A program made the position numbers and the translations under genes. The notes beneath the pieces are model-generated. The model saw only the letters and a list, made by a program, of their open reading frames with translations. It was not told where the DNA came from and made no database searches. Positions 12,319 to 55,372 of a stretch of DNA of 64,000 nucleotides are shown one piece after another. Location: the NCBI GenBank assembly GCA_051294905.1, contig CM119371.1:28460001-28524000 (forward strand), in the 5' to 3' direction. This DNA comes from Botryllus schlosseri (Eukaryota). Every line of letters starts with the position of its first letter. Position 1 is the first letter of the stretch.

Positions 12319-12604
12319 AGTGTGCATGTGTAATTGTGCATGCCTCCATCTTTACATTGCCTAGGCTAGGCCAAGGTGAGTGTCTGATTCCTGAGACTAT
12401 ACTTCAAGTCGTTTCGACACCTTCCTATCTTTTCGTTGTATCGCTGTTGTGTGCTGTACTGATAACAGATAAAAAATTGCTAACAAATCGCAGGCTCACA
12501 CTACGTTTATTTCGAATGTATTGACACAATTCTGGCATAACTATAAAACATTGGTGATTGGCAGGTATCGAGAAAGAAATACTTACAGGTCGCATGGTGC
12601 AGAG

Positions 12605-15020
12605 CAGGGGTTCTGAACCCGCGGCCCGCAGACGTTTATTTTGCGGCCCGCGACATCTTTCATTACGCAAGCAATTACTATACTGGCACAGAATTGTTAC
12701 ACATTAATTTAGCTACTTAGCTTTCTTATCGCACTGTCTGTTTCGTTTGACTACTCATTCTTTGATGTGTTCTGGTTTCTTGATATAGGCCTATGCTGAA
12801 GTTTAGATTGTTATTGTTTTGAATCGGTATTCGGCTGCACTCTGCTTCACTCTGCTAGAGAGGGTGTGATTTCAATAAGACTTCAACATACTGCGCGAAT
12901 ATTCGCTGTTTCCAGAACTTAGCAGCGAGGCCAACATGACCTGACAAATTTCGAAGCTACAGTTGTTTGATTCAACCGTGACCAGAAGAGTAACAGCAAT
13001 GCCAGTCGATCTTTTATCGCATTTTCTGAACCACGTTGCCGCGTACACTACTTTAGCCTAGCATTGGAGGAATCCACCGGCACCAAAGACATGGCACAGC
13101 TAATTATCTGGGTGCATTTTATCAGAGTAGACATATTTGCAGAGAAAATGCAAAAACAATAAATTTACAAAGCTGACTCCTTTAACTATTGGTGCAGGCA
13201 GCACCGTAACTGCCGCACCCCAAACCCCCCAATTGGGGGGGCCCGAGCTCGATGGGGGCCCAAAATTATTTCGTGAATTAGCATAAATCATAGAGTATTT
13301 TTTGAAAATTTATGCAATTTTTTCAAAATTTTTGCGCGCTGTGCGCGAATTCACGTAGCCATTTATCTTTCTTATTGGGTATTGGGCCATTACCGCGCCA
13401 CGACCCACCAAGACATACAATCAAGTTTTGGGCCATATAACATGCGACTCCAAGAAGTGTGCCAGAACGATTGGCAGCGAGAAAAGCTTGGCCGAAAAGG
13501 TCTATGCCCTTATGCAGATCAAAGACTTCGCTATATATACAAAATACATATAGGCTTAATTGTCCATAGGCGCCTAAATGACTGGCGCCGAATGTTCCTG
13601 TCTTTGCAATCTGAACCTCACAAGACAAATACCATCCCGCTGGGAAAAATTTTATGCCAGTGAAGAAATACCAATTTGAAATCGTGTGCTTCTTTTAGTT
13701 TAGAAGCCTACGTTTGGGCGGTTCTATATTTTCTGATATAGCAGACTGGAAGTCACGAAATAACATCATGTAACGACGTCATATCAACGGTTCCGCCCGT
13801 CCGAAGATGTTTAATCATTATTTACGGGCCCTCCCGTTTTCAAGACACTTCACTCAGCTCTACCGGTAAATCTAATTACGTGAGTAGAGAAGACAATAAA
13901 TTGATAGCATATTATATATGCAGTCGCCGATCTGATTTACCGATTTTATCATAAATTATCGAAAATTTTCGCGCTTGGCGCTGGCTCTCAATACAGTACG
14001 GGTAATTTCGTGACAAACGTGAACAACGTGATGGGGGGTCGTTTTATCACCCTATGGGAGCCCAAGACCCACGTTCTTGGGGGCCTGACGAGGTGCTGTT
14101 TCGTTCCTGCCAACGGGTATACGCCGGAAGATGTTTAATTATTATTGAGTGGTCCTACCATTTCAAACACACCTCACTCAGCTCTACCGGCAAATCTGAT
14201 TACGTGAGTAGAGAGGACAATATATTGATAGCATATTATATATGCAGTCGCCGATCTGATTTACCGATTTTATCATAAATTATCGAAAATTTTCGCGCTT
14301 GGCGCTGGCTCACAATACAGTACAGGTAATTTCATGACAAACGCGAACAACGTGATCGGCGGGGCCGTTTTATTACCCTATGGGAGCCCAAGACCCACGT
14401 TTTTGGGGGCCTCACCTCACCACACCTCACTCAGCTCTACCGGCAAATCTGATTACGTGAGCAGAGAAAAGATAAAAATTGATAACATGTATGCATAATT
14501 CCCGATCATACTGACCGATGAAATCATGAATACTAGAAATTTTGCGCGCTTCGAGCGATTAGGCGACTAAAGCTGATTCACTAAAGAAACTCCCAATGAA
14601 AATGATGAATAGTGGTACACAGTGTATCGCCGGAGGGGGGTCTGGGGGGCGAAGCCCCCCAGACGTTCGGTCTATAACACTATGGGGGGCCCAAGACCAA
14701 AGTTTTGGGGGGGGCCTGACGAAGTGCTGTTACGGCGCTGGGTGCAGGGCTCCATTAGCCATGGAAGGAAAGGAGAAGGGTTGATTGGTTTGCTCAGCAA
14801 TGATCCCGAACACCAGACTTCTTCTCATATCACTGAGAGCTGAAAGTCATGATAGCCTAATGAGCTCTGTAATGAACGAGTGGCCGTTATTTCATACTTG
14901 CTCACTCACTCATTGAAACAGGGAGTTCAGTTCTCTGTTGGAAGGGTTTGCGGTGCATATACCCACTTGGAAACGAATGCAATACAGGCTCCATATGGGA
15001 ATTTACTGGCGCCGAATACC
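12605..15020 (+). mobile_element. Buster/SPIN-like hAT deletion derivative (inverted paralog of 38515-39876), split by insertion 13199-14740
   Basis: Left end CAGGGGTTCTGAAC; blocks align inverted to 38760-39876; transposase remnant ISKLQLFDSTVTRRV. Confidence 0.75.
13199..14740. mobile_element. hAT-type non-autonomous element with internal ~310-bp tandem repeats (relatives at 29840-30400 and 57740-58615)
   Basis: TIR CAGCACCGTAAC/GTTACGGCGCTG and exact 8-bp TSD GGTGCAGG. Confidence 0.88.
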
Positions 15021-15574
15021 GGTTGGTTGTACGGAATCCTCCTATATGTTAATTACATCGCATTGTATATCGTGTGTGCTTGTGCACGTGAAGATATAAT
15101 CTGACGATTATTGAGTCTGCATGAGAAGCAAGTAATTTCGTATCCCGAAACAGCTTATACCTCGTTAGCTATGGCGAGATGTTGAAAGAAGCACACTACA
15201 AATTTAGTGAACTACGGCCACCTCGCAATTGCCAATCAGAAAAGCTTGGGCCTACTTATTACGCCAACTGCACTGTTAACTTTCCCCGGCAAATTACACA
15301 AACGATGCCACGCCAACCATCATTGAATTTTTATTCGTAAGCACTGAGAGCATTGTAATGTAGTAAAAATCGTACAGACATAGAAAATAATCTCAACAGC
15401 CCCATATCTGAACTGAAATTGCATAGCGCGAAGCCCCCATCTCCACTTTCACATCGACCCACGGTTGAACTAACTATGACGAGGGGGTCAAAACATGAGA
15501 CCCCTGAGATTTCGATACCGCTAACTTATCTCGCCTACGAGACAGATCCTTAGGCATGACGTGTCGTAACCGGA

Positions 15575-15985
15575 TTAACCTGAAGAGTCGTCAGAGGACA
15601 TATCGAGGGATTCCGAAGATGTATCGTCCCCGCTCGACAAATCAGTACACGTATCATCATCGCTTTTAGTGCCGCGCATACCGAACGTTCTGATTGTACC
15701 CGGTATTTTCCGCGCGTACTGTATCGTCAATGGCGCGTGCTTTATTGCGTTGCTTGCTTTCTCGTTGCGTAGATGGTTATAATAAGACGAGTCTCGGGCT
15801 GAATTGGAAACGTACAACGAATTGGGTTTAGGCAAAGGTGTAGATCGTAACGTGTGGTAGTAGCGTTTGATATCGTTACTGGCAGGAGGGGGTAGATTTT
15901 GAGAAGGCCTGTCTTTCGTGGAAGGCGTGGTCGCCGTGGATATGCCGCTGTCTGTTGAAGTAGAGTCCAGCGATTGCTGATTGCT
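15575..15985 (-). CDS. SIRT3: Sirtuin exon 8 (Ser/Thr/Pro-rich, acidic C-terminal tail)
   Basis: A perfect TACTAAC branch point precedes acceptor ttgacag. The exon is 137 open codons in phase 0 to TAA, with AATAAA downstream at 15330-15335 (minus). Confidence 0.72.
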   Translation of the reverse strand, partial: SNQQSLDSTSTDSGISTATTPSTKDRPSQNLPPPASNDIKRYYHTLRSTPLPKPNSLYVSNSARDSSYYNHLRNEKASNAIKHAPLTIQYARKIPGTIRTFGMRGTKSDDDTCTDLSSGDDTSSESLDMSSDDSSG

Positions 15986-18900
15986 CTGTCAATCAAGATG
16001 GGGTGGTTAGTAAACAGCAGCAAATCAATCTAAACAGGCCTGAACAGGGTTGCTATTGAATTAGACAGTTTCCATGGCCGTAATGTTGAGATATGATGGT
16101 TGGCTTTGGGAAAAAAGTTTATCGTGGCCAAACTCTAAATGAGTCTAAACCAGGGGTATTCAACCTTAGGTTGGCAGTTTTAAGAGGTTCTAAGTGCTAA
16201 TACGGAAACTACAACTATAAAACTACATTTCATCCAATTTCTAATCAGGCCTTGATGAAAGCTAGGGGACGAAACTGATGACTAGGGCGATTATTCTTTT
16301 GACCTAAAAAATCTAAATTTTGACTTTTTTCGACCCAAACAAACTGATTGTTGGCCAAATTTTGACCCAACGTATGCAGATTATGTGTCTTCCCACATTA
16401 TGTTAAACTTGAACCACTTATCTTTATTTCTGGTTGGAGCTGTATGTCCTAACGAAGTAGTTTGGCCTGAAAAAACGTTTTTGGCTTAGAAACGAGCAAA
16501 TTTTTACATGGAAAAAACTAATATTTTAACGACGTCTGGCCCTATGAAGAATTTGTTGTAGTACGAGGGATACTTTCCTACATTCTTGGGTAGAAAGTGC
16601 GTGTCCTTACTTAGAAGCTTGCCAAGAATGGAGAAAGAACGTTCAACAATAGCAGTTGTTGGCTGACAACACTCAAGTTGTGAGTACCCTGCTGGTGACA
16701 CACCGTGTTGCTTCATTCTGACAAAGCTGTCTGCATCACAATTTTTCATCATGTGATACTTAATATAAGAATGATGCAATGCCCAAGAAGTCTTTCTTCT
16801 GTTAGGATATTGCGGTACGTTGACCATAACACCATGTCAACCTAGTTGTTTTATTTGACCGTTTATGTTTCACGATGAGCAGGCAATGGACCGTTTCCAA
16901 TGGTAGGCCTATAAAGTAGGCTGCAAGCTGTAAAATATCAAATGATAAGTTCACCGACAGTGCAAAATCTACGACACAAACGAAATGCACACGTCAAAAA
17001 AATTCTGACAAATTCTGATTTGACAAATTTTGACCTAACGCTACAATTTTGACAAAATTTTCACAAATTTTGACATGTCAAATAAAAATCGCTCTACTGA
17101 TGACCTTTCTAATATCTGGTCACTTTGAAAATTGTAGCACCATTTCACGTCATACCAGAAAGTGCAGTGCACAATTTAGAAAGCAGCCACCCACACCAAA
17201 TCTTACTTTTTAGAACTAGGTACTTGAGAACTTTGCAAACCATCTTTTCCTACTTCCACAAAAGTAGTTTGACATGTATCTTAAATTGCTACTTCTGCTT
17301 ATAATTGAGTAGAAATTCATCCGGGCGTTACCCCTACCCAAGTACCAACGCAGACTGCTTTTACCGTCTCAGCTATGACTTCACTTCTAAAATGACGCCA
17401 TTCAATTCGGGAATTAGTGAACAGCTGGACAAATTCCGACCTCAAAACTAATATTCAGATGTTTTGACTTCGCCAATCGCCTCTACATATCACCTCGTCA
17501 ATTTTCGTAGTCTCCACGATTACTTTTAAATCTTCAGCCCATCCCAGACTGTCTGCCAACCTGGAAAGAAAACAGGGCTTTATCGTAGGGTCATCATTAG
17601 GGCAAGTTTTTGCAACTTTTGCAACTTTTTTTACAGCTTCTGGAAGCTTCGTGAATACTCATAATGTATGTAGTACGGTATGGTGTTTTAATCTGTTTGG
17701 AGGAGTTTTATGTTGCAACTTCTTGCAACTTTTGTCTATATTTTTAATGCAACTTTTTTCTACAACTTTTATCAAGTATTGCGCAGAATATGTTATAAAA
17801 CTATAATAAAGACTAAATTAAGGGATTTCAAGTGACGATGCGGCCCATCATAGGCGCCGGACGCAGGTATACTGGGTATGCCGTGTTTACCGAGCAATTT
17901 TTCGGGTATGCGGCATACCCACTATTCCGTTAGTCATGAAACTCCCTGAACTAACTGTTAAATTGTGCGAACCGTATGTAAATAAAAATGGAACCATGAT
18001 CGATAGAATAGCGAAGGAAAAAACGGAACAAGCAGACACCGTGCGAATTTTAAACTGCTGGAACCTTTCGAGTATCTCATACCCTCATGATTTCAAAAAA
18101 TTGTATGAAGGAAACTTCTGCAACTTCTGTTAAAATTAAAAAAATAAATGCAGCTTTCTCAGGTTTTCAGTGCAACAGAAACTTGCCCTAGTTATCATAC
18201 GTCCTCCTATAGGATTTGTCCTCCTTTCTGAGGTTTTTGAAATATCCTCCGAGAACGCCCAAAGGTCCTCCTTTTTAGCGATTCGTCCTCCTCTACAGTA
18301 TTTAGAGGTAAGATAAGGGATAGGGCCGAGTGAAAATGGGGGGATATATGACGCTAAACAGGAAATTCGTGGTCAGGACGTAAGTGACGACCTTTTTCTT
18401 CAGTCAACCTATCACAATTTCGTGGTGAATTTACCAATTTTTTCCCCGGATTCCAGTATTGTAAGTCCGAAAATTTTGATAAAGTGTCCCCCTTTCCCGA
18501 TTCCAAAATATGGAAACCCTACTCCATCGTATCCCGATACATGAAAAATCGAGCAATGCTATTGATCAGTGGACGTTATCGTCTAAACCTGTAGGCCACC
18601 AGTTGTGTCAAACTCAACTTGGGTCGCAGGCCGGATCAGCCAAATGATTCTAATATATTACATATCCATACCTTTGTTTTTCACCGGAATGCTTTATTTT
18701 CTAACGCCATGCAAAATAGTTTATATCTATATGCCTCACGGATCCTGTGGGCTCTATTCGAGCAACACCGTTATTTAAAATACGATAATTGACCTTTTGA
18801 ATATAGTTTAATCTACTAAAATAGTGGCTCTAACGACGATACACGTTGGAGTATTTAAATGCTCCTGTTTGTTTTGTTCGTGATGCGTCGTTCGTCCCGC

Positions 18901-21900
18901 GTATTCGTGGTGAGGAATTCAAGAGATTGTAAACTGGGGCGTTTAAGTTTCTGTGAAGGCCGGGGCTGAGGCTGGGACCAGAGATATTTGAATTACATTA
19001 TTCGCGTAGCTATTGTATTCTCCACGCATTTTACATGCAACGGTTTCAGATTGTCGCTTTCGTCATTGTGAATAACTACTATTTGGTAGGTTTTCCAGAA
19101 AACTATGAACTAAGTGTGCACTTTTTTGCCTTTCCGAATCTTTAGTGTCAGTGTCATCGACTTTCTCATGGCGGGTTGCTTGAGCGAAATCTCAACAATG
19201 CCTGCAAATGTTTATAATGTGGACTATGAACGATGAACCTGTTCGACATTCGCTGTCTTGAGGGATTATTTGCGTAAAAAAACTTATGTTAGAAATGTGT
19301 CGGATAATACAATAATTTTTCAAATTAGTCGGAATGGCATCAAGAGCCGGATGAAATGGGCCGTGTGATTGACACCCCTGCTGTAGGCGATATCACTGCT
19401 GGGAATGAGGGATTTCAATTACTTCCTGGAGGCCATAAATATATGTTCTTACCTGTTCACAGTCTGAGCCAAATCTCCCGTGACACCCACATCGTGAGGC
19501 CTCCTCTGTCCTTTTTTCTTAAACGGCCCGACCAATTCCCTGTTCAGCAACACCCTGGGACAGTTGAGCCTCACGGACGAAGTCAGACTCGCGAACGGTT
19601 CGACTTCCAGCGACGTTCCCATGACGATCAGCAGGTCGCATTGCGGAAAATCGCGCAGGTAGTAGTAGAAACGGCGGGGCAGGTCCTCTCCAAAGAATAC
19701 GATGTCCGGCTTTACGACGCCCCAGCAGAGTCCCCCTGAGCGACACCTTGGCACGACACCTTCGAGTACTTTTTTCTGTAAAAAAGCAGCTGCCTATATC
19801 AGAGTGTCATTGATATCACAATTTCAAACCGATAATGATATCTTGAATATGGGCCATTGTTGCCAATATTATCACAGACTACGGAGGGCTTCTTTCTTAT
19901 AAAAGAGGTCAAACTAGTCAGCGAACTACCAGGGATGAAGAGACTCGAGTAAATCTTCACTAAAATGCCACAAAACATAATTAGCCACAGAGCGTTTATT
20001 CCGGGAAACAGATTTCCATAAAGCCCAGGGTCTAACCATAGTGTCCTACAGTGGCGTGGACAGAACTGAATCGCATGGCCCACTGCGATTGGGTTTCCAT
20101 TCTTTCGATTTTACCAAAGACAATTTACGACACTATTTAGATGGGCTCGTGGAGCAAGTGAGCAACAGCAGCGAGAGTGAGAGTGTGAATGCTCAATCGG
20201 TGATATGTTCGTCGTTTGCGCTGTTGCTCACTTGCTACTGAGCTGCGACATCGTTACTCCAGACGGCACTGTGGCGTCATAATGCAAAATTCGAGGGTGA
20301 GTTTGGGGAGGTTCCAGAACTATGAGAAGAATAAAATTTATCTTTTCGTAAACAGTACCGCGGTAGCTTTCAATCGATACCAATTTTATCAAATTCCGTA
20401 AGTAAGTCTAAATAGCGCCAGAAATTGCCTTTGGTCAAATAGAAAGCATGATGTTACCCAACATCAGTGAGCCGTGCGATTTGGTTGTGTCCGCACCACT
20501 GTAGGACACTATGCTCCAACACTCACCTTGATTTCCGCCGAGTCATGTTTCTTCATACACTTTGTACACGTAGCCGTTGAGAATGTACCGTGCGCTTCGA
20601 CCAGTTTCTCAGGAGGCACGCCAGCGACTGTTAGCACATAGTGAGTTGAGTACGTAATATATTAATGGAGATGCGTCCGATCCAAAGTAAAACATTCGAC
20701 ATAAATATGTCAAAGAAAGAATTCCAATCAACATTGCTACGATAGTGTCTTGATGCCAGGAGTGTTTCCATGCCAACATTTGTCATTTGTCTAGCAGTAT
20801 ATTATTTCCATGGAATAGGGTTGGTAACATGGTATGATAAACCAGATTACCGTCTTTTGCCAATGACACCATGAGTGAGTCTTTGACTACATTGTCTAGT
20901 CACTAGTTAGCTTGTTTTAGCCATGGAATAGCCTACATAGAGTTGAGCTTGATGTCATGACTGATGACCTTTTTAATTTTATTTTAGTCATTGGCTTGTG
21001 AAATTTTGCGGATATGCGTAGCCGCCTACAACACTTGAAGGGGTCCATAAACAAAGAAGTTTAAGAACCCCTGCCCAAGGCTGTAGCACAGTGGTTCCCA
21101 ACATGGGCGGTACCTCTCCTAGTCGGCGATTTTGAGACAGGCGATAGGGGGCGAAAATGTTACAACGTCCAGTGAGATGTACTTGCTTAACACGGTCAAA
21201 TAATGCACGTGAAGACGGCTTAATCTGCATATGACGTGACAAACAAGGTCAACTAGACGTAAAATAGACACGGAAACCGGTTTTCCGAGTACCTACCACC
21301 TCTAAAAAATGGCCTTTTTCCAGTAAATTTACCAGCGATCAGAGCTAGGTGAATATATTTCGATTACATAAATATGGGCCGTGGCGAAAATTTGTGTCAA
21401 GATTGATAAGGGGGCGATGAGTCGACAAAGGTTGGGAACCACTACTATAGCCTACCACCGTGACGTGATAGCTTATAATTTTGAATATGTAGATTATTTG
21501 TGGCGCCATCAATCATCAGGCATTGGTCGGAAAGATGCATCTTGGAATTTCGTGATTTTATCTGACAAACTTAACACAGTCTACTCCCTCACGGTAGGCC
21601 TACTCACTGGTGAACTTTTCACAACTTTTGTTAATCAATTTTCTAAATCGCTACTTCAACTTGTCAGCCTCGACCTAATCTACGTTTCATACTTCCGTGA
21701 GGACATTTCAGACTTTTTAAACTTCTACATCGAGTGGATTCGGCATTCTCGAAAATCTCTACCTTTGCACATAACCGAGTATAAGTGTACATTACTTCTA
21801 CAGCCATGTTGAGCAGCCTCAAAGACTAATTTAACCAGCTGTGATATTAAACAGGAGTAATGGTCACAAAATCTTAAGCACTCACTTCGTTCCAATCCGT

Positions 21901-24900
21901 CAATGTTCTGCGTATACATTCTGAGCAGTAGGCCTTTGTCGTGGAGCAGTTTGGCGAAGTAATGCGGCATGCACGGCTTGTATTTTCCGCTGGGATAAAG
22001 CTCTCTGGCCAACGCGAAGAACGGTTTCGGATCGTAGTGGAAATAGTCCAGGTCAAAAATAGCAGTCGGGTTCGGTATTTTGTACTTTTGAAGATTGTCG
22101 TAAAGTCCGGTGCCGGGCGTTCTGAAAATGGAGTAGTCCCCTATTACTGACAATTCACTAGGGATGGTGTGAATGTGACGTTCGCGTTCTGTGTGTGAAC
22201 CTCAGACATTTAGAGGTTCACGTTCACAAACGAACCTTGGTAGTTGGTAGGTTCTGCACTGTGAACCTTTTGGATATAATACAATTTTTCACGTCATAAG
22301 ATCTTTGGTTGAAATTCTTTGCAATTCAACTTTAGACCACTCTATGCATGGCGCTGGCAGCATAAAAAAATGAACACTAAACGAGCATGTACCTTGACAA
22401 TCTCAAAAATTTTACTTGCTTTGTTACAAAAGTTTGCTCGAAATATCCAGCTTTCCGTTTTCCGAATATTTAGTGACTCTCTGCTGTGAGCTTGACCCGC
22501 AATCACACAACATCAGGAACGAAATACACTGCGTGTAGGTAGTCAGCGAATGATGCTTACTCAACCAATCAATGAGATTGATATGAAGAATACATCCGGG
22601 GCATATCGTAGGCCCGATACATCGTTGTCTGATGCAAAAAAAATGTAGCAGGCGTACGGGATCCATCTTGACTTGATATGTTTATTGCACCATAAAACCA
22701 AATCCGTGCGATTGGGGTGTTGGCTACTTTGTTTATCGGTTAATATCGGTATTAAGTATAGCAACAGGTTTTACACTCTACTCAATATCAATGTAGCAAT
22801 AATCAGAAGCCGAATACGTTGTCCAGACAGGCCTAGACCGTTAAAGCGTAAGCCTCGTCGAAATTGCTGGCAAAGCGATGAAAGACATCGATTTTATGGA
22901 ATTATTGTAGTGTTTGCTTGCTCCAGTTGATGCCGTTTAGAATGTCAGCAGGCACTTTAGCATTGTGTCCTGAGTTGTTGCTAGGTATTGTGTGCACTAA
23001 AATGTAGGGTTGGAATTAGTAATATGACGTCACAGGTTAACGTTCGCGTTCACACAGAACCTTTCAAAGAGGTTCGCGTTCACACCAACCTGAACCTTTC
23101 AGGGGTTTGCACAATCCCTACAATTCACTCGTCTGTTAGTATTCGTAATGTCTGCAGAGGTGGTAAAATTAGTCAACGATGGTACTCAAAAAGAGGCAGA
23201 AGTAACGCAGTAAATTTCTACTCAATGACAGGTAGAAGTTAGGGCCGGGTACAATGTTTTAAGTACTCGAATCTGAATTAAGTATTAATTCTATTGATTC
23301 GAGACAGTAATGAAAATATACGCTTCTTGCCACTGCTAGTTACTTTATCAACGAAAATTATACTTTCGATACTGTTTTCCGTTGTGGCAGCCTTGAAACC
23401 AGGGTTGTAACCAGGTCACAAGGTTCCGAGTCACGAGTCAATCTCACTTTTACAGTCGAGTCGAGTCATTCTCAATACACCACCGAGTCCAAGTCAGTGA
23501 GCAGACGTTGGAGTTCGAGTCATAGTGTTGTGACTCGAGTCCAAGTCAACCCACTTTTTCAACTCGGCTCAAGTGATATAGAATGGCTCGCATTCATAAT
23601 ATCATAATTTTCCTCAGTCCTAACAGTTTTTCGCCCTATTTTCCAAGTATAAGGACTGATAGATGAAATACCAACTATGTCGTGACTTTACTATTCTTCG
23701 GAATTACAATGAAATGTATATCTTGACAAAAATTCGCGACTCGAGTCACTGCAGCTCTGCTTGAAACCTCGATTGGTAGTATCGCAGCATACGAAACATA
23801 TCACACAAAGCTACGAACGTTACTGAAAACAACATATTTCTGAAGTCATGCGCAACCCTCAACATTGCCACAAAGTCTAATATATCGTATTGAATGTACG
23901 TACACTTCTAGTTTAAAGCATCGAGACCAAAATCACTATTTAATGAATTTATTAACCTAATGTAGGCCTACTTCGATAGCTGTTGAGGTCGGTCAGACAT
24001 CTGCGGTCGGCCAAAGATGTCAATAAGTAAATTGAATTCGGACTGCATGTCAGATGTAGAGGACCTTAGTAAAGACAACACGTGAACATCAGTCATCTTG
24101 GAACGCAGCCTTGTTCATGGTCGCAAAAGTTTGCTCGCAAATGTATATAGACCCGAACAGAACAAGTGGTTTCATGACCATCTTCCTCAAGTTAGCAAAC
24201 TTGGATTCATTCTGTGACGCATTAAATTTGTTAATACTTTCAGCTTAGAATTTCACTTTAAGATAAAAACTTTCCGCGGCCCGCTCAAAATACTGTCGCG
24301 GGCCGTGTGTGGCTCGCTTCAAAGTGCCCAACTCTTATTCTGATATGGACTGCGTTGAGACCTTCTGCTGATACAAATCATACAATACTTGTACAATTAC
24401 GGTTGGGAAATAGTAGTCATAACAAAATATAACGCATTACCTGAAATCCGGTATGCCACTGCCCGTGCTGATACCGGCGCCAGCCATTATGATTATATTT
24501 TTCGCTTTCCCGGAGGATATCATCTTGGCGATGTCCTTGACTTTGTCGTATTTCTTTACTTCACCGCTGTGATTGGTGTCCGTGGATAAGCGTCGTTTTG
24601 TTACTCTGAAAGGGTAAAACAAATCATCAAAAATACACAAGGTCAAGCGAAATTATTCAAAGGATGTAAACATACTGAAATGAACTCGAGTATTTTCAGG
24701 CGACCATCCTCAGGGGTAATCGTCAGCAACCAGTAGAGAATTGGAAAGAACACTGTGCATCAACAATAGTTCCGTATCACCAAATATGACGTGACAGGGG
24801 GCAAAGAGAAGCGCTAAAGCTCAACACACTATATTTAGATGGTACATGAACTCCTATTGGCACAGACTCGGCTGGCGTATTTTGATAAAAATTGACTACA

Positions 24901-25968: not shown

Positions 25969-26659
25969 TAGGTCCAACAGGGCGTGCTATCTTTTGGGCA
26001 TACAGTGTAGGCTACATGTCTACTCTGTTTATCCATTAAATGCCGGACTTTTTCCTAAATACTTAGCCCGACAAACGAGCGTCAGTGGCAACGCCAAGGT
26101 TTCTTTCTTGATATGGCTTCACGTCCGTCAACAAATCTTCAATGCTAACGAGGTCATGACCCCAACTGTCTGAAACTTCTCTATCCAAATCTACGCTAGG
26201 CTAGAATCGTTAAAATACGTTTTCTGTGTAAGCATATGTCTTTTCGTTGATATTATTTCATCATCTGGTTATATAGCGTTTGAATTAACTGGTTTCTCGG
26301 CTCCAAACATCGCATTGATGTGATTTATTTACGGAAACATATCGGTTCCTTCCATTGATATCGCCTTTTGTTTGACGTAATTGTAATCAAATACCGAATC
26401 TACGTGAAACCAGCTATTACCTTTGTTCGTGGAAATCCACTGGCGTGGACTGTGGATACCACGCTTTGCAAACTCGAAAGAAAATACCTTGAATATAAGC
26501 ATGTCTAAACACTAATTCAGTTCAGATTTTTTATAATTTGATCATTTCCAAACACTACCAGATTGCAATAGGATTGCTTGCTGTAGTCTTTCAAAAACAC
26601 ACACTTCGGCCTAGAACAGGCCAACAGGGGTATCTTTAATTATTATTATAGATGTACTC

Positions 26660-26975
26660 ACCGTAAATACTATTTTATTCAAATCAAAATTTTTTGACGG
26701 CAATAACTTTATTCGCTTCTACTGGTTGGAATTGAACCAAATTTGGTGAGAATCGTTCCTATAGACAACGTAACACATTCATGGGGTGAACGGAAAATTT
26801 ACAATTTGTTCAATATTTATATTTATATACTAAATCGAAACTTTCTTCTCCTGTACCAATGGATGACGGCTATGGAATTGAACCAAATTTGGTGTGTATA
26901 GGCTTAAATTAGGTAACCTAACCTATCAAGTAGCCAGTATGATTTGCGAAAAAAGTCATTTTTGAATGCCCCTAA
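26660..26975. repeat. Dispersed repeat with a TACTGGTTGGAATTGAACCAAATTTGG core (also 10890-11155 and 33740-34200)
   Basis: Visible alignment among three copies; termini not resolved. Confidence 0.7.
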
Positions 26976-26989
26976 TGCACAGTGTACAC

Positions 26990-27962
26990 CAGTCGTTCCC
27001 AAACTTTTTCGGTGTGAGGGCCAAATTTAGAATTTCAGAGTCCTACGGTCGGGGCCGCACGAATACTTACTACGGCTATGAAACGGACCCAAACAGTCAT
27101 CATGGGTATTTCGGAGTAGTTTTATTGCCCTGGCGAGATTTCAAAACTGTACACTGTTTACCGCTACTTATCTGCTGCATTGGGTGTCCGTTGAGTGAAT
27201 CAGCTTTTCTCGTCTAAACGCGCGAAGCGCGAGAAATTTCTTTAGTTTCATGACTGAATCGGTCAATATGATCGGGAATTGCATGTATTGCTATCAATTT
27301 TCATCTTGTCTCAGTTCACGTAATCTGATTTACCGGTAGAGCTGAGTGAGGTGTGTTTGTAAAGGTATAGGCCCGCTCAATAGGAATTAAGATGATTTGT
27401 CCTCTTTTTTGACTGTTTTTAAAGTGTCCTCGGAGGACGCCCAAATATCTTATTTTTTGAGATTTTGTCTACATTTATGAGGATTTTGGTTATATATAGG
27501 GCCAAATTCGACTGATATACATTCAGTCAGCACTGTAGGAACGCTACGGCGGCTATTTCGTAGCTAGACCGGGAAGGTTTTTTTTTTCAATGTTAAAGAA
27601 AAACTGTATTTTCCGGGAGTTGAGCCTCTTTTTCTTTTTTACTCAAGCGACCACGAGGGAGAGATTTTCCTCCGGTTTTGTAAGTTATCAATACCTATTT
27701 ATATCTATAGCTACTGCTCGTTCAACTGGAAAGTTAGGGCACATTGCATTGAAACAGCAGTGACATAACGTTAGCAGTCTATATACTCACAACTTTCCTG
27801 CAATTCTATAATTAAAAACCATAGAGGTCAAGTCAAGCAAGAGTATTTTATAAATATATATTTTATTTTTTTCAATAATCGATTTCCTAATATATTTTGG
27901 GGCCGCAAGAAGGCTCTCTGCGGGCCGCATGCGGCCCTCAGGGCCGCACTTGGGAATCACTG
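26990..27962. mobile_element. Buster-type MITE containing fragments of other MITE families
   Basis: TIR CAGTCGTTCCCAA/TTGGGAATCACTG and exact TSD GTGTACAC. Confidence 0.85.
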
Positions 27963-29187
27963 GTGTACACTGAATGAAAAGTGAAAGAAGATATAATATA
28001 TTAGGCTTTAAGCGACAAAAATGAGGTGGTATGTCAAGGAATAAGGCGATATCGATAGGTCAGGTCGGATTTTTTGTGCGAAGAGACTGTGTCAGCATTG
28101 CGCACCTTAGATGGAACTTTAATTGCCTGTAAAGCACCGTACGAAACGAACGAAATTCTCTGGAGCATCCAATTAAGCTTCCGAGACAAATCAAGCATTT
28201 TTGCCAAACATTATTTTAATTTCGGCTCTAAGAATGTTTGCTGTAGCATGCTTGTTGACTCAAAAAGTATTTTGTACTATATCCACCATCTTAAATCATG
28301 TTTAAAAAATACTAACGCTATACTCGGTATAAGAATTTCTTGGCTCCCGACCTCGAACGTTGGTAAGAGAAGTACTGAGAAGCTTATAGTCAGAGAATAT
28401 ACGGTATGCACTGAAATTCCTAATTAATTTTTACTATACAGGCCTTGCAAAGCAGAGTAGATATACTTTTCAGAGTCCATCAAGCAAAGATAAATATAGT
28501 CAACACTTGTTCTGCATTCTGCTGTAGCACCTAGCTTAAATACCGCTTTTGCAATGCTTTTTGACGTGTCGACTGGCTTCCATACAGAATCTTCACCTGT
28601 GAAAGCAAAAAACGATCACGCACTCGACCAAGTTCATAGTGAAATGAATTTAGGGTGGACAAACCGCGGTCTAAATCGATCTATATAGCAACTGTTCGAA
28701 TCTCTCTGTCAATGCCAAAATCGTGTGCGTGACGTTCCGATGGTTACGCAGAATTTCGCATCGCAATATGGACGCATAAAACGGCTGCGCGTGAGTGTTG
28801 ATATCCTTCTATAAATCGATTGCAGTGAATATGAAAAAGCCCATGCAGTGAAGGTGAGCCGAGCCAAAAGTCGGCAGCAAAGACTCAAAATACAGACGCA
28901 CGAATAACGAGAGTGACTGATGGCGGAAGAGCGCGAGTATGAAAGTCGTCCGTAATATGCCAAAAATACCGCAAAGACACTGATGTTTATGATATTACCG
29001 TGCTGGGCGCGAATGACCTTATAGGCGATAAGCGCCAATGTGGTGAATAAAACAAACAAGCAAACTGCTAGAATCTCGTTGTGAATGTCAAAATCGTGTG
29101 TGTGACTTTGCGACGGTTAGGCTACGCAGAATTCCGCATCGCAAAGGACCAAAAACGACTGCGCGTGAGTGTTGATATAGCCTATAT

Positions 29188-29498
29188 TAGGTTTACCATA
29201 CGTCCTCTTTTAAGAGGATTTGTCCTCTTTTTTGATTTTTTTGAAAGTGTCCTCGGAGGACGCCCTTTTGTCCTCTTTTTTGAGATATTTGGTCATTATA
29301 GCAAAATCCGACTGAGATGCCGTAAATCAGCACCGAAATGACGCCCCGACGGGTATTTCGGGAGCCGAGCGGAAAGATGACCTGTTTTAGTCGACCGACC
29401 ACCAAATAAGTGGGTAAAATTTACCGCTCCTCCGGTTTTGCAAGTCTGAAAATTCTGAAAAAGTGTTCTCTTTTTAGATTTACAATATGGTAACCCTA
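29188..29498. mobile_element. TAGGGTTACCATA-family MITE (also 54191-54478 and 61148-61511)
   Basis: TIR TAGGTTTACCATA/TATGGTAACCCTA with TSD GCCTATAT/GCCGATAT; the copy at 54191 has CTATTAGC/TTATTAGC. Confidence 0.85.
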
Positions 29499-32400
29499 GC
29501 CGATATCCTTGTACAAATCGGTAATCTTTTTCATTCAAATGACGAATCGCATGCATGGTGCATTGTTGAAACCAGAACATTTTGCGTTTAGGAACAAAAT
29601 ATAACAAGATATTGTTAACCATCGAACCCTTACGTGGTTTCTGCAATTTGTGACGCGCGATTATCAAGCGCCAAATCGCCCAAATCTCATATCCTCATAG
29701 TTTTGTACATTTTATGTTGATTTTCTTTGAAGTATAAAAATAATTTTAGGGACAGGTTTATTGAGCTTGAATACTTTTCCTCGCGCTGTGAGGGATAATT
29801 TTAGGTAGTATATATCACCAAAAAACGAATCGCATTATTAGCGATCGCTTGCAACCGCCGATAAATACATATGCCAAACATGTGGCACGCATGCGTGAAT
29901 GCCATTCATGTGCGTGCAAATAATTTTTCCCTGCGGGATGGCATTGGCCTTGTGTGGTACGAATTGCCAGGACAGGAACTTTCTGTGCCAGCCATTTAGT
30001 GGCCTAGGGACAATTAAAGATGTAATTCTATATTTATCGTAGTTTTCGGTCATGATGGCAGTCCTTTTCGGCCAAGTTTTCTCGCTGCCGATCTTTCTGG
30101 CACACTTCTCGGAGTCGCATGTTACATGGCCTAAAACTTCATATATATATTACTTGGTGCGCGTCGCGGTGATGGACGACGCCGAAATGTCCATTTCTGG
30201 GAGCCATGCGTATTTTTTCCTGGGGGACCGCGTGTACCCAATAATCAAGATATTTTCCATTAAATCACGCATAGCGCGAGAATGTTTTGAAAAAGTTGCT
30301 TAAATTTTCGAAAAGTGCTTTATCATTTATGTTACTTCACGAAATAATTTTGGGCCACCTTCGAGCTCGTCCCCCAATTGGGGGTTCGGGGTGCGGTCAT
30401 TTGATATCATGACAGCTAGCTTATAAATGGAGGAGACTAATCCGCTCTGGAGAGCCTTTTAAATTTAGAGTGTAGATGTCGATCGACATAGATGAAGTCG
30501 AACGTATCAATGCAGCACGCCGGACCCCTGAGACTGACATCGGTAATCACAGGGATTCGCGCAACCCCCGGTCAAGAACCACTGCTCTAAACTCTTCCCA
30601 ACGTAAATAACCGGATATTCGAAAATGAATCGATTCATCCACTTAGACGCCCTTCTCGATCTCGCCCAGCCCTAACCCTGATATATAATTCTGCATAATT
30701 TATCGCTTGTGCTTGCAAACATCGATTCGGCGCCTTCTTCAATGCCTTTTACCACATACCCCAACCCAAAGCCCTTGATAATGTTCGCATTTAGAGTAAT
30801 ACCGATTTACTTCAATCCACAAGCCGAAGAAAACGAACCTGAGCAGTTCACCGATATTCGAAAGGAAAGGACAAAACAAAACGAGGAAAATAGATATAAA
30901 TTGCTCGCATGACGGCTAAACGAAGGCACGAAAACGATATAATAAAACCACCGTCCGCCCTCCGGAGAGTCAGCGGATCAAACCCGACACCGGAAATTGC
31001 TTTCAAACGTACCGCCCTTCGAAACAGTGCGCCAACACAAAAAATTGCTTCACAATTGCGATATTCGACCTATCGCAAGACAGTACAGAGCATATCTTGT
31101 ACCCGCGCCGATGACGTCCCCGTAACGGACAACGATTGCCCGAAGTAGATAATCAGACCGACATAACGGACTATGGAAATTGCCATCGCATAACTGAAGG
31201 CTATGCCGCGCCGTCGCCAGCATAACTTACGTTCCAGTCGGCGCAGTGTGACGGAATACAGGATAGTTTATCCAGCAGCGTGATGTCATAACGCGACCAG
31301 AACGGACATAATAACACATTGCGACACGGCCTTGGAAATATCAAAAAAAGTTATCGCGCTAAGTGGGACACTTGCGAAACAGCGCCATTTAAATACGAGT
31401 TTACCATCTGATAAATAGAAAGGAAATAATGTGCTTGGTATCAGTCCGTGCAAATAGCCAGCTCATGCGTGTTTAGAAGACTTATAGGTTACGCGGCAAA
31501 TTGGTGTGATGCTGTGTCCATCAAAAACAATAAATTACCTACACTCGCGAGAATCATATCCAAACAGTAGAACGATATGGCGTTCAAAGACGAAACAGAA
31601 TCGAGGACAAGTGAACTTCTTGCCAGAGATTACAAAGCGCACATGATTATAATGAGTGTAACAGAGAATTTTTAGCGGGGTAATTTGGAAATAAAATCAG
31701 AGCCCACTTATCTACAGTGAGGCAAATAAGTGGAATCCAGAAAAATCGTGGGGTAAACCAAATCGATGAACCTGACCAGTTTACTGAGTGTCTTCATACC
31801 ATCATGTTCACGTCCAAAATGAACGCTAAATGATATTATTAAATCCGTTGAATATGTAGTCCCACACCATTTTCATACTCAACTGTACTGATGGGCAGGC
31901 CAGTATTATCAAATCTGTCCTAATCGGTGGATGATACATGTACGGCGGTTCGTATTTTGACACTTGAAAGCAAATTAATTTGACACAAAAACAACGTATT
32001 GCAATATAAACTATATACACACAGAGTAAGTGATATGAAAAGACATGAATAATGGCGCGGTTTTCGGTGGCATGGGTGAGTTTTAGTGACGAATCACTGT
32101 AGTGAAGAGTGTGATAAATGCAAGTTCAAAAGTACACGCCGTGAAACACCCATGTGCATGAGCAGAACAGCTAATGGCTGTATCACATTTCAATCCACCT
32201 AAAGAGGTTTGCGGATTGAGTAAAAGTCAAAATCCATGAAGAAAAATATTTTGAACTTACCAAGATATTGGATTCATTGATTCATTCAAAATCGACAATC
32301 TCAAAAATAGCTGCATAACAGGTGAAAATTGCATTGCAATTGTGCTTACGGCGTTTTTACCACAAAAGTATACGACATGACACTAAGAATTTACCTAGAT

Positions 32401-34582: not shown

Positions 34583-37246
34583 TTACACCCTCAGCTCTTT
34601 TTTAATCTTATGAATAGTCCGCTCGTCCAAAGTGCACAAGTCAAAATCGAGATAGTCGTTGTTACGCAGCAGTTTCTGCTGTTTGTCCACGATACGCGCT
34701 ATCTTACAAAGCCTGTCCACGTCTGTAACGTAGGACAAGCGTCTCTGCAGGTCCTGCAGATCGCGGTACAGCTCCTGGGTCATGTGCGGATACTTTTGCG
34801 CCGCCCCAGTATCGACTAATATGTCCGGTCGAGCCGGGGTTTCGTCTTCGAACGCGGCATCGTGGGCGTCTTCGAAAGGCTTATCGACAGGCGACCCGAA
34901 TTCTTCCTCGTCGGAGGACATGTACAAATCATCAGCCTCTGGGTCAGGGGCTGGTGAACTATACTGCGGGCTCTTTTTGGTGTCACTAATACCTTGACCA
35001 GCGTGGGCTGGTAGGTCCTCGGTATTACCATGCTCAGAATCTGATGTGTCATCTCGACTCTGTAGATTCGCGTCTTGATACCCTGGCACTGTCCCAGGGT
35101 CGTCTGGGTAATGGTCAATCGGCGATAAGGCCCGACCAGGCGCGACGTTACTCTCGCTGATTTTTTGCAATTCATCCTCGTCAGACGTGCTTGAAGACGA
35201 TGGAGCATGACTCGGCGTGTTTTCGGAAGGTTCCGAAGAGCTGGCTGATGATCGTGACGATGTAGAACCAGACCTGTGGCGTCCCACAGGGATAGGGTCT
35301 GGTTCTATCCGGGGCACGCTAGTCTCGAATCTACCCACTGGGTCATCGCAGTCGCTACTAGAGTCCGTGTCGATAAATGATCGCGATTTCTGCGCTTTTT
35401 CCGTTTTCATCTTCTCAGGCTTTTGATGGCTCTTTTTCAAAGATTTCTCTCTCACTGGAGACGTTTTCCGCGACCGTTTCTCTTTACCGTACCCGGAAGA
35501 CGAAGACTTACTCGGTTTGGAGCCCGCATCTCGATTTTCCGATTTCAAAGTGCCGCCGATGACAGGCTGACTCTCCGATTTCACCACGTCATTGTCTATC
35601 TTCGTTTTCGACTTCACTTTATCGGATTTATCGCGAGACGAGCGCTTCTCTTTCTTCGCTTTACGTTGAGCGTGTTCGTCCTTACTCGATTTCGAGACTA
35701 CGACCGGACTCTGGCGTGGTTTCGGAGACTCTGACCGGCCAGCCTTGTCCTTGACTCTCGAAACAGTGGGAGATTCCTTCCTGAAATTACTCTTATCAAA
35801 CTTCAACTTTTCCGGTTTAGTCACAATCTGCCCGCTCGATTTTCGGTCGGATTTACCGGACCGGGTAGGGCTGTCACCGGCAAGTTTAGACGATTTCACC
35901 TTCTTTTCCACCTTCACAATTGGTTTTTGTCTTTCGGGCGATGATTCCGGGGAGATATCCATGTCGCTCTCAGACGACGAAACTATGGCGACGCGCTTGA
36001 CCGGTTCCTCCTTTTTGACCTTCGCCACGTCCGGATTCTCTTTGGGCCGCTTTTTGTGACTTTTAGAGATTTCCTCTTTTGGCGTTCGGATTTTGTCGCG
36101 TTTTTCCGAAGACCGTTCTTTCCTGACACTGTCTCTGTCTTTTGACGCTGATATCCTGTCCTTTTTAATCTTCAAAGTCAAGTTCCCGGCAGGGGATGAC
36201 TTCGACGGAGGTGCCTGGACACGTTCTTCTGTACGTGGCGAATCCACGTGCCTCACCGGGGTCAAGTTTGCGGACAGCTTGTCTTTTTTCACCTTAACGT
36301 CGACCAATTCCGCTTTGATTTTGTCTTTTGACTGCTTGATTTGAGTCATATTGATGCTGTTTTCAGGGGCGAACAGCCCCGCCATTAAATCGGGTTTGTC
36401 TTTGATTTTGCGGGACTTCTCTTTTTTCGCGGGATTCAGGACAGGCACGTTTAGAGTTTTCGGACGGGCGTCTTGCGGGCTGGGGGACGCATGTTTTTTC
36501 TTTTTCTTTTTACCGCTGACATGGTCGGAAGCGGATCGTTTTTTATCGGAACGGCCGCGTTCCAGTCGAGACGCATCCCCCGGACTGTCCCTGCCGGTTT
36601 TTGAAGATTCGGGCGCTTTAGGGTGCTTGAATTCTTCCTCGTGACGCTTGATGTCTTTCGCCGCGATACGCGCGGTGGACCTCTTTTTATCTCCATGTTT
36701 GCTCGAGCTGCTCTCACGTTTTTTGGAGTGCTCTCTGGATTTCTGGCGGTCCTTTTTCGGGGACATGCCGCCGGTTCTGGGCCGGTCTTTTGACGAATGC
36801 CTCTCGGGGGATTCTATCAGCACGGCGCCCGCGGCCAGCAGCTTTTTACGAAAATCTTCCGTGGGATTAGTGAAAGTCAGCTTTTCAAGCCGGTTATGAT
36901 TGACGGGCGGCATCGAATCCATCAGCAAAAACAAATCGTAATCGAACAGGACCTTTTTGGGGTCCTCCTGATTCCGAAAGTACAACTCGATTGGCATGTT
37001 GAAACCTGCGAATCCAGAATTCTCGACTTTATAAGGCGGTTGCTTTATGACCCGTCTTGGCTGGTCGTAAGAATTGTGCAGATTAAACACGACCTTTTCC
37101 ACGAAATGCCGTAGCGAAACGCCGTCGGCCCCTTTCACGTACACCATCCAATCGTGGGTATGACCCTCTTCGTTGGGCTCGTCTCGTATCTTCGCACGGT
37201 GCCCCAGTTCGATTTTCACGGCCACAGTGGTTTCTTTCGCCGCCAT
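34583..37246 (-). CDS. MLLT3: ENL/AF9 family protein (N-terminal YEATS domain, Lys/Ser-rich linker, C-terminal AHD domain), 887 aa, intronless CDS
   Basis: YEATS signature THDWMVYV...[13 protein letters not shown]...[13 protein letters not shown] and C-terminal [15 protein letters not shown]. An acceptor (ttttttttcgcag) lies at 37305-37317 in the 5'UTR. Likely co-ortholog of MLLT1/MLLT3. Confidence 0.95.
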
Positions 37247-37554
37247 GCTCGGTTCGGTCGGCTAGTTCAATTCATTCGCAAGAATTCGTCGTAATAAATA
37301 CGTTCTGCGAAAAAAAATGAAGGCACAATTAAGTATTTCAGACGGAGACGATTCTCACTCACTCAGATATTACGCCAGACAAGACCACTAGATAGCTGTC
37401 TAATCAAAGTGAAATGCCAGTTACCCAAGTGTAAGGAATTTGTGGAATGTTGCTATGCTATAGGCCCCATTCTAATCTAATTTGTGTTTTTTCACGAAAT
37501 GCGACATGATAACTATTGGACTATAACGCGAAACATGCCAAGCTTGGTATACAG

Positions 37555-38001
37555 CAGTGGTTCTCAAACTGTGGTACGCGAGCGTATTTTTAATTGTTTT
37601 CAGTCTACAATTTGCTGTCCTTGCTGTAAACCACTATAAACACACACGGCACTACAGTTGTGCAGCAATTTCACGATGGTATCATCGAGGATTCACATCA
37701 AAGAGAACGAAGCATCTGGTATTGACTAGCTTGGTTTCTAGGGCTAACATATCAATGCATTATCAGTGTATTTTAACCATGTCGAAACTAGAGTGAGTAT
37801 TATTCAACATACATAAAGTATGGATTCATCGAAATCGAAAATGTTTGCTACTGTGCGCGCTTTGTATGAAAACCGTATTTAACGCGACCATGAAGCCCAG
37901 CCTGCTAAAACGGCACCTTGATTAAAAAGAATTGTGGATCCCTTGCCTTGGCCATTGAACAAATTAGTGGTCCGCAACCGGAAAAAGTTTGAGAAACACT
38001 G
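37555..38001. mobile_element. Charlie/Buster-like MITE
   Basis: Ends CAGTGGTTCTCAAAC...GTTTGAGAAACACTG; TSD GTATACAG, with the right copy carrying a GCCTA insertion. Confidence 0.8.
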
Positions 38002-38039
38002 GTAGCCTATACAGGCATTTGCTATTGAATTCCGATTTG

Positions 38040-53866: not shown

Positions 53867-55372
53867 TGTAGGATGGTGCAGCACACTTGCACAGCATGAC
53901 TGTGGAGTACATTGAAGGCCCTGGCAGGTAGAGTACTCACTGAGGATTGTAAGGCCTACGGTAGAGTATTGCGTATCCAATTCTGTATCCGGTTCGACTC
54001 CAGAAATACAGTTTTTCTTTCACACTTTACGTTGGTTGACTGAAAAGAAGGTGTAGAGGACGAATTCCCAAAAAGGAGGACGTATGGTAATTGGTAACCT
54101 TAAACAATATCCTACACAACATTGAGCATCCATTTGCCCATGTCGTCGAAATCTTTCCACTTCGCCAATGCACTGAAGTTTGCTATTAGCTAGGCTTACC
54201 ATGCGTCCTCTTACTTGAAAGTGTCCTCGGAGGACGCCCTTTTGTCCCCTTTAATGAGAATTTTGGTCATATTTGTTGCAAAATGCGGCTGCGATGCCGT
54301 AAATCAGCACCGAAGGGACGCTCCGGCGGGTATTTCGGGAGCTGAGTGGAGAGTTTTTTTTAGTCAACCGACCACAAACTCGGAAAAATTTACCATTTTT
54401 TGAGAATTCTCCGGTTTTGCAAATATAAAAATTCTGAAAAAGTGTCCTTTTTCAGATTTCCAAAATATGGTAACCCTATTATTAGCCTAAGGATTTTTCG
54501 AAATAGTGGTGCAATACTGAAGCCAGCCGAGTCCAAGTTCATACAAAATATTACAGTGAACAACAGGAAGGCATTTTCATGCACTAGAAATTTAGAATCC
54601 TGCCCGGATCCAACTGTCGGGCAAAAATCCGAATCCTGTCCGGTTAGAATCCAAAATTCTGATCCTGTACATCTGTAGCATACGGTGAACTCGATTACAG
54701 GCAGATTTGCTAATTCTCAAGACCTCATGGAATGGCTGCACGGTCAAAGTTTGGTTTGTAAGTCAGCAGCGTTTGGCTGAAGGCAATTTGACAGTGATTT
54801 TCGACCGGCTTGCCGAGCATCAAATTTGATAACACGGGTATCAATGGAAAGCTACCGCTGTAGCCTACTGATTACGAAAATATCAATTTTATTTCGCTCG
54901 TAGCCCTGGAACCCCCACATTCAGCCTCGAACTCGTCATTGTTATGGAGAGTGGCATAGTGACGAAACAACTCTCTGGCAAAACGAGAGCGTAGCTCAGG
55001 AGCAAATGAGTGGCTGCGCGACGAGAGTGAGTACTCACTTGGCGTCGCGGCAATGAAATCGCAGTATTACTTCTGGTGCAAAAGGTCTCCGTCTCCAGCA
55101 TTCAGAGAAATCCGAATGATGATTGAAAAATAATAAACCAAATTCCAACGTCACCGTTTAGTTAAATTACCTATATTCCATATAAGGGCTAGGCCTAGGC
55201 CTGGTAACAGAGCATTCCTGCGAAAAAAAAAACAAAGGTAAAGATTTGGTGGTAATTAACATTTTGGAATCATTTGACTGGTCTGGCCCGCAAGCTGGAG
55301 TCCTACACAACAAGTGGGCTAAACCAATCGATATCATAATAATCTGGCATATCGAGAAGCTAAAGTCTATAC

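Follow-up and report, generated by a model that had tools for sequence, protein, structure and literature searches.

TA-GGC-TA-type insertions throughout the Botryllus schlosseri genome resemble transposon excision footprints

Excision of Tc1/mariner elements, in which the transposase cuts the non-transferred strand a few bases within the element, generates 3′ overhangs and leaves the terminal 2-4 bases of the element between two TAs, as in the TACAGTA and TACTGTA footprints of Sleeping Beauty (PMC6943129). Here we describe small insertions of this general form in the genome of Botryllus schlosseri (GenBank assembly GCA_051294905.1, 495.5 Mb in 219 contigs). They were noticed in a window of 64,000 nucleotides, positions 28460001-28524000 of contig CM119371.1, which is repeat-rich animal DNA with 41% G+C. 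An earlier note on this window drew attention to three words, TAGGCTA, TAGCCTA, and TAGGCCTA, in which the inserts GGCTA, GCCTA, and GGCCTA are set against a TA. On balance, we consider it probable, with appreciable room for doubt, that these scar words are excision footprints of a cut-and-paste element that duplicates TA, carries 5′-GGC...GCC-3′ tips, and is cut 3 bases inside its ends.

Enrichment, polarity, and target of the insertions

Scar words occur in excess throughout the genome. Expected numbers for the window and for 20 random 10-kb stretches (L009-L028, from nine chromosome-sized contigs, which together with the window make up a 264-kb sample) were derived from Markov models of orders 1-3, and the reversed word served as the control for the whole genome. 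The window contains 8 copies of TAGGCCTA where 0.44-0.86 are expected, 8 of TAGGCTA (2.2-2.6 expected), and 16 of TAGCCTA (2.2-2.7 expected). Likewise, the random stretches contain 16 copies of TAGGCCTA (1.3-2.0 expected), 26 of TAGGCTA (6.5-8.3), and 22 of TAGCCTA (6.8-9.0); 7-mers are present in 19 and the 8-mer in 10 of these 20 stretches, and the flanks are mutually unrelated. Across the whole genome, TAGGCCTA is found 43,701 times versus 9,854 times for its reversed form (4.4-fold), and TAG(G/C)CTA is found 131,669 times versus 51,110 (2.6-fold). Both word classes together amount to ~114,000 sites in excess, and the 7-mer excess is ~2.4 times that of the 8-mer. These numbers support the claim of the earlier note that the words are enriched, for which it had roughly estimated about one TAGGCCTA in the window.

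The set of enriched words is also restricted. When every TA-X-TA word of the 264-kb sample is considered, TAG(G/C)CTA is the top outlier for a 3-base X (72 observed versus 22.6 expected, z 10.4; the next word has z 3.2), and TAGGCCTA is the top word for a 4-base X (24 versus 2.9, z 12.4), which corresponds to excesses of ~49 and ~21, respectively. Neighboring words in the same sample are not enriched, as judged from TAGCTA (55 versus 53), TAGGTA (108 versus 104), and TAGGGTA (22 versus 20), and TAGGGCTA and TACAGTA are also at or near expectation. One further word, TACCGGTA, is enriched in this sample (12 versus 2.4), and TACCGTA/TACGGTA are not. Perhaps TACCGGTA is a second scar word, produced by an element with CC(G) tips.

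Comparisons between repeat copies reveal the insertions directly. All copies in the window were compared, along with those in the random stretches and at eight additional loci, and indels were accepted from alignments with at least 75% identity and clean flanks on both sides. Indels of lengths 3 to 8 numbered 34, 24, 36, 20, 13, and 3, with a bump at 5 and 6 bases. Approximately 7 of the 25 distinct sites with 5-base indels and 4 of the 15 with 6-base indels read TAG(G/C/GC)CTA across the junction; the raw output flags 8/26 and 5/16, respectively, and two rows in each class represent the same site. By contrast, scar-type indels account for 0/34, 0/20, 0/13, and 0/3 distinct sites of 3, 4, 7, and 8 bases (70 sites). 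The tally of indels among repeat copies proposed in the earlier note does reveal a bias toward scar words that is confined to lengths of 5 and 6 bases.

Where the direction of change could be assigned, the short allele reads x-TA-y and the long allele reads x-TA-(GGC/GCC/GGCC)-TA-y, with TA kept on both sides in every case except one. At this exception (L004:1403, on C14), the other five copies read G-TT-C rather than G-TA-C, and therefore TAGGCCTA at this position needs either an extra T-to-A change or an insertion at a non-TA site. Two sites of one repeat family carry the long allele in L004 only, or in L004 and L006 only, among six copies. The earlier note had considered that family consensus sequences might show the long allele to be ancestral. 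The consensus is short at these two L004/L006 sites and at window positions 14853 and 54861, and it is long only at 12786 and in a three-copy repeat (16904/50437/60995). The inserts are derived, and the long allele is the minority form wherever polarity was assigned, with 12786 set aside. Scars are subsequently passed on by repeat copies and then mutated, as is evident from the variants TAGACCTA, TAGGCTTA, and TAGGCCTG among copies of the 12786 family.

One G-TA-C site, CGTTTCTAG-TA-CWTGTTTCTG, was followed genome-wide through all of its alleles. Of these, 17 are short (16 with TA and 1 with TT) and seven are long, the latter comprising four copies of TAGGCTA, two of TAGGCCTA (one of these on the duplicate contig C203), and one of TAGCCTA. 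No other insert of 1-10 bases is present at this site genome-wide. The sequence on contig C203 (L006, C203:1506-4752) is a 100% identical reverse copy of C10:13398444-13401690 (L007) over 3,247 bases, which probably reflects assembly redundancy. Because C203 is an exact duplicate of this part of C10, it carries no allelic information as a second haplotype. Four public read runs were also compared with window positions 12001-32000, and the best-supported indels listed did not include scar sites, in an output that was swamped by repeat copies.

Three sites in the window are clean examples of 5-base insertions by comparison with paralogs. TAGGCTA at 29118..29124 is inserted at T-TA-C relative to one paralog at 28742. 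TAGCCTA at 14853..14859 is a derived insertion at A-TA-A, with one long allele and four short alleles (L002, L003, L005, and a window paralog near 38915); the case is ambiguous against the comparator originally used for it and is settled by three closer copies. A further TAGCCTA at 54861..54867, which was absent from the list in the earlier note, is a derived insertion at G-TA-C for which the allele is short in all 8 paralogs (one long versus eight short). A related example involves a hAT-like non-autonomous element at 37555..38001, whose terminal repeats start with CAGTGGTTCTCAAAC and whose 8-base target duplication is GTATACAG. The left copy of this duplication is intact at 37547-37554, and the right copy, as read from the sequence at 38002..38014, has become GTA[GCCTA]TACAG. 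Because GCCTA (38003) lies inside one copy of the target duplication, this insert must be later than the insertion of the hAT-like element itself.

Other sites in the window record inherited or ambiguous events. The high-copy repeat that carries TAGGCCTA at 12786..12793 exhibits a real 6-base indel, whose long form defines the consensus of a young subfamily and is present in 7 of 7 closer family copies, three of which have later point changes. Since all seven copies share it, the event struck a master copy rather than this window. TAGGCTA at 12362..12368 forms a tandem TAGGC-TAGGC in a repeat with CCTAGGCC already in its consensus, and whether it represents slippage or a scar is ambiguous. Thus, three of the five paralog comparisons in the earlier note (29118, 38003, and, by way of the closer copies, 14853) hold, whereas those at 12786 and 12362 are not clean independent events. 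All strings quoted in that note are found where it places them, except that the last TAGGCCTA begins at 60995 rather than 60996, and its statement that three of them belong to one repeat was confirmed: 16904..16911, 50437, and 60995 represent one inherited event. The remaining copies are at 21595..21602 and 23963..23970 (both in a G-...-C context and without a paralog), 55190..55197 (C-...-G), and 55840..55847 (G-...-C).

The scars favor one target. There are 39.5 scars per 1000 intact sites at G-TA-C (30 scars and 759 intact sites), compared with 9.4 at A-TA-C/G-TA-T, 9.1 at C-TA-G (where one repeat family raises the value), and 0.8-5.1 in the other contexts, and scars occupy ~4% of the G-TA-C sites in the sample. 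At position -1 of the 8-mer (n=24), G (58%) and A (38%) together make up 96% of cases, and C (62%) and T (29%) make up 91% at position +1; the 7-mers exhibit the same trend. A palindromic preference for G-TA-C is expected of integration by a dimeric transposase, and repair by itself would hardly produce it.

A possible excision mechanism and the search for its element

It seems reasonable to propose that the scars derive from an element that would duplicate TA at insertion, like Tc1/mariner/pogo elements, would favor the palindromic target G-TA-C, and would end in 5′-GGC...GCC-3′. At excision, the non-transferred strand would be cut 3 bases inside each end, such that each flank would retain TA plus a GGC-3′ overhang. 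Annealing of the two overhangs over their full length would pair G:C and C:G around a central G:G mismatch, which could be resolved to either TAGGCTA or TAGCCTA, and overlap by the self-complementary GC alone would yield TAGGCCTA. Two GGC-3′ overhangs joined in two registers would thus account for three enriched words and for the lack of enrichment of TAGCTA, TAGGTA, and TAGGGTA, as observed. The former presence of an element at the scar sites, its tips, and the 3-base stagger are features that we infer from this agreement.

The number of scars does not require a large number of elements. With each jump, a low-copy element could leave one scar without becoming any more numerous, and could in this way produce ~114,000 excess scars despite a donor that is not seen. 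Because scars of cut-and-paste movement accrue without growth of the element, they may outnumber elements without limit, and a missing donor is not fatal to the proposal. Moreover, transposases of the relevant superfamily are encoded in the genome, where DDE_1 (pogo-type) has 72 matches, many of which are open frames of 500-742 residues. Two copies of a pogo-like 2.87-kb element (L043:338-3187 and L044:310-3179), bounded by TA-GGGGAGAGT...ACTCTCCCC-TA, are 98.3% alike and carry frames of 638 and 640 residues with DDE_1 and HTH_psq domains. A 0.97-kb miniature inverted-repeat transposable element (MITE) with GGGGAGATGTGG tips (L020:2793 and L022:3183) likewise has TA-GGGG...CCCC-TA ends. These elements have R-TA-Y flanks at 8 of 8 ends. 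The existence of resident TA-duplicating R-TA-Y elements and of intact pogo-type transposase genes is therefore counted in favor of an origin of the scars by excision.

Donor screens and sequence comparisons covered ~357 kb of the 495-Mb genome, and whole-genome analyses consisted of exact word counts and domain searches. The screens addressed terminal-repeat pairs, recurrent words after TAGGC, filled versus empty paralogs, and longer retained tips. Several of their results weigh against the proposed mechanism. No TA-GGC...GCC-TA element was found in the ~357 kb except for an ISL2EU family that is excluded by its target (see below). The comparison of filled and empty paralogs yielded 32 larger insertions, none of the predicted type, and the same comparisons gave ~11 scar events. 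A TAGGCCAGGCGC end upstream of a pogo-like gene in L042 was rejected as single-copy, and the TA-GGGG...CCCC-TA elements have GGGG tips, not GGC. Thus, although the TA duplication, the derived state, and a transposase of the superfamily are all present, no resident element with matching tips was found in the ~357 kb. In the genome-wide domain search, which was coarse, Pfam DDE_3 (Tc1) and Transposase_1 (mariner) gave no match, and Transposase_1 was silent in control genomes too. Other points of this kind are that no single locus yielded the element, the empty site, and the scar as alternative alleles, that the blunt-joined form TAGGCGCCTA was sighted on just two occasions, in copies that belong to one repeat, and that the four TAGGCTA copies at the CGTTTCTAG site may be one event by descent. 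The element ending in GGC...GCC that the earlier note envisioned is partly supported, by inserts that are derived, duplicate TA, and have three forms and a palindromic target. Its report that the window contains no such donor holds, and extends to the wider search of ~357 kb.

Several candidates were rejected during this search. The search for longer retained tips, TAGGC(0-24 bases)GCCTA, recovered only stacked scars and one repeat family. A 5.2-kb TA-GGCC pair in L022 has a weak terminal repeat (16/20) and is without a long open frame. Other TA-GG(G/C) pairs proved to be hAT elements (8-base duplications), Mutator-like elements (9-base duplications), long inverted repeats, or repeat-internal sequences.

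One prominent candidate that was rejected is the most abundant MITE of the genome, which has TAGG(C/G)TTACCATA tips, to which 13,403 ends in the genome match. GGC tips account for roughly half of the first 100 ends listed, in many cases on both sides of one copy, and a copy mostly has the same variant, GGC or GGG, at its two ends. One copy is located at 54191..54478 of the window, and others are present at ~29187-29498 and ~61148-61511 of the window and at L010:6834-7202. Among 10 copies, the target duplication is a perfect 8-base repeat in seven, a 7-base repeat in one, and degraded in two. The 8-base duplications reveal that this MITE is of the hAT type and that the TA is part of its terminal repeat. 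Excision of hAT elements involves flank hairpins and leaves palindromic additions between two 8-base duplications. No 8-base duplication surrounds the scars, and what sets them apart from the short alleles is just 5-6 bases; the MITE was therefore excluded both as a donor and as a source of remnants. The flanks of 10 copies, 1,000 bases in all, contain only one scar word and hence no excess. Near some MITE ends (window 29178-29200, 54476-54489, and 61509-61520; L057/L058), the last five letters of the MITE are repeated (e.g., CCCTA-CCCTA) or scar words are found. Given the lack of excess in the 10 further copies, the occurrences beside the three window ends are possibly due to chance.

The second prominent candidate is the ISL2EU family noted above. 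Six copies (L032-L037) of ~4.3 kb have terminal repeats of ~215 bases, and there are 437 ends (~220 copies) genome-wide. The copies are 98.8-99.97% alike, indicating a very young family, and they encode a transposase with THAP, HTH_Tnp_4, and DDE_Tnp_4 domains together with a YqaJ exonuclease gene. One locus of the family is C11:24705772-24717251 (L045+L034+L046). A 2.75-kb deletion form seems to account for most of the copies. Family ends read AAT-AGGCC...GGCCT-ATT, and A precedes TAGGCC in 100 of 100 ends listed. This build and the A-AT-T target are as published (PMC4122938, PMC4482050). With a strict A-AT-T target, compared with scars that lie mostly in G-TA-C, this family fails to explain the 5-6 base inserts and was excluded as the donor.

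Competing explanations

A relative of the ISL2EU family might nevertheless be considered, although we regard this as unlikely. In this scenario, the donor is a PHIS-type element (an ISL2EU/Spy relative with a DDE_Tnp_4 domain) that has AGGCC...GGCCT tips, inserts between T and A of GT-AC without duplication, and on excision leaves 3 bases of each tip, T-AGG-CCT-A. Such an origin would draw on the DNA-transposase domain that was by far the most often detected, since DDE_Tnp_4 gave 151 matches in 150 scored of 891 first-look candidates, mostly in open frames, and AGGCC tips are carried by the resident family. Furthermore, two studies (PMC4482050, PMC4122938) indicate that PHIS groups differ chiefly in their target, with palindromic single-base flanks such as A-AT-T and C-TNA-G, and that Spy elements are free of duplication. 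At the sequence level, PHIS insertion at GT-AC and TA duplication by an element with GGCC tips cannot be told apart without the element. However, the A found before TAGGCC at every listed end of the resident family corresponds to A-AT-T rather than G-TA-C, the polarized scars are insertions of 5-6 bases versus the 8 bases that would come from an AT duplication, and no such donor was found in the ~357 kb screened. In addition, excision sites of mPing (PIF/Harbinger) are reported to be repaired precisely, in contrast to the footprints of Stowaway and Mariner elements (PMC4561436). The paper on Spy as a tool (PMC11304231) does not contain the words footprint, excision, or overhang. A broader version of this idea, which we find distinctly unlikely, is that the scars record a G-TA-C-specific, TA-cutting transposase, either of the PHIS type (ISL2EU/Spy-like) or from a group not yet described. 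The element would have had (A)GGCC tips, would have hit ~4% of GTAC sites, and would now be almost gone.

The resident pogo-like TA-GGGG...CCCC-TA elements and MITEs could themselves be the donors if they were cut 2 bases inside, as Tc1 and Tc3 are, such that GG and GG would join to give TA-GG-CC-TA and the loss of one base would give the 7-mers. In favor of this source, the elements exist and are flanked by TA, with R-TA-Y at all eight ends, but we judge it quite improbable. The 7-mer excess in the 264-kb sample is over twice that of the 8-mer, random trimming should raise TAGGTA/TACCTA and TAGCTA, which are at expectation, as is TAGGGTA, and GGGG tips leave the invariable C at the third base unexplained. 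An origin that involves no transposon appears equally improbable. The scars would then come from a TA-specific staggered break (e.g., by a domesticated nuclease at GTAC) followed by a fixed GC-rich filler, akin to the repair tag that the earlier note raised as its alternative, from deletion of old long alleles, or from an assembly artifact. The failure to find a donor in the screened DNA speaks for such an origin, two TAs that are 3-4 bases apart could support microhomology deletion, and the site at 12362 is readable as a plain tandem duplication. However, the long alleles are the minority in polarized families and one of them lies inside a target-site duplication (38003). Untemplated filler should generate a gradation of G/C words, and there is none; deletion leaves the several-fold excess of long words unexplained; and scars that are inherited by repeat copies and then mutated must be in the DNA rather than in the reads. 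Thus, polarity, the restricted word set, and scar inheritance by repeat copies are what make the filler, deletion, and artifact options fit poorly.

Sequence context, implications, and comparison with described footprints

The window carries several other features. An intronless frame of 892 residues at 34583-37261 (-) has YEATS and AHD domains in an ENL/AF9-like build, and an intronless frame of 502 residues at 50943-52451 (+) has a Maelstrom domain, which is associated with the PIWI-interacting RNA (piRNA) pathway. These two frames could be retrocopies or true single-exon genes. A C2H2 zinc-finger frame is also present. The most over-represented 7- and 8-mers, both window-wide and in L009-L028, include TGACTCGAGTCA and GACTTGACT, and L012:7261-8845 is a 176-base tandem repeat.

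If the scars are indeed excision footprints, then one family of jumping genes wrote more than 100,000 small insertions in a 495-Mb animal genome, or approximately one per 4 kb, including insertions inside other repeats and target-site duplications. Such footprints would be a major and easily missed source of 5-6 base indels that biases indel spectra and k-mer statistics. They would also constitute a large sample of germ-line end joining on one defined pair of 3′ overhangs, with a register ratio of ~2.4 to 1 as judged from the genome excess. For the element itself, the scars would provide a sharp search handle, TA-GGC...GCC-TA in G...C flanks. Should a PHIS-type transposase or one of an undescribed group be responsible instead, the scars would be the first read-out of the cut position of such an enzyme, 3 bases inside the element, and would provide a very large body of natural evidence on how the germ line of a chordate relative joins broken ends.

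In form, the insertions are canonical excision footprints of TA elements; their kind is known and the principle is textbook, and it is the scale and the missing donor that are unusual. Literature searches by motif (TAGGCCTA, and 'footprint' with TAGGCTA) gave nothing on transposons among the matches listed. Among the systems to be compared, hAT footprints are relevant because the commonest MITE of this genome has TAGGC...GCCTA tips that share the five letters of the inserts. They differ in that the scars are without a flanking 8-base duplication and the short allele differs by 5-6 bases only. Footprints of Stowaway MITEs and plant Mariner-like elements (PMC4561436, PMC1925063) are similar in that a small duplication plus a short end sequence remains at TA and is recognized by comparing copies or species. 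Such footprints were reportedly studied per locus with known donors, whereas the evidence here consists of a genome-wide word excess and indels between repeat copies, with a donor that was not found.

The closest likeness is to the footprints of Sleeping Beauty and of Tc1/mariner elements in general, in which the terminal 3 bases of the element lie between two TAs (PMC6943129). As with the insertions described here, Sleeping Beauty leaves two complementary 7-base forms via a central mismatch, each 5 bases longer than the empty TA site. The differences are that the tips here would be GGC rather than CAG, that there is a strong G-TA-C preference, and that the ~114,000 excess sites are visible in plain word counts while the donor was not found in ~357 kb. 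Finally, the third form, TAGGCCTA, is common here, and GGC permits a second, perfectly paired register that CAG does not.

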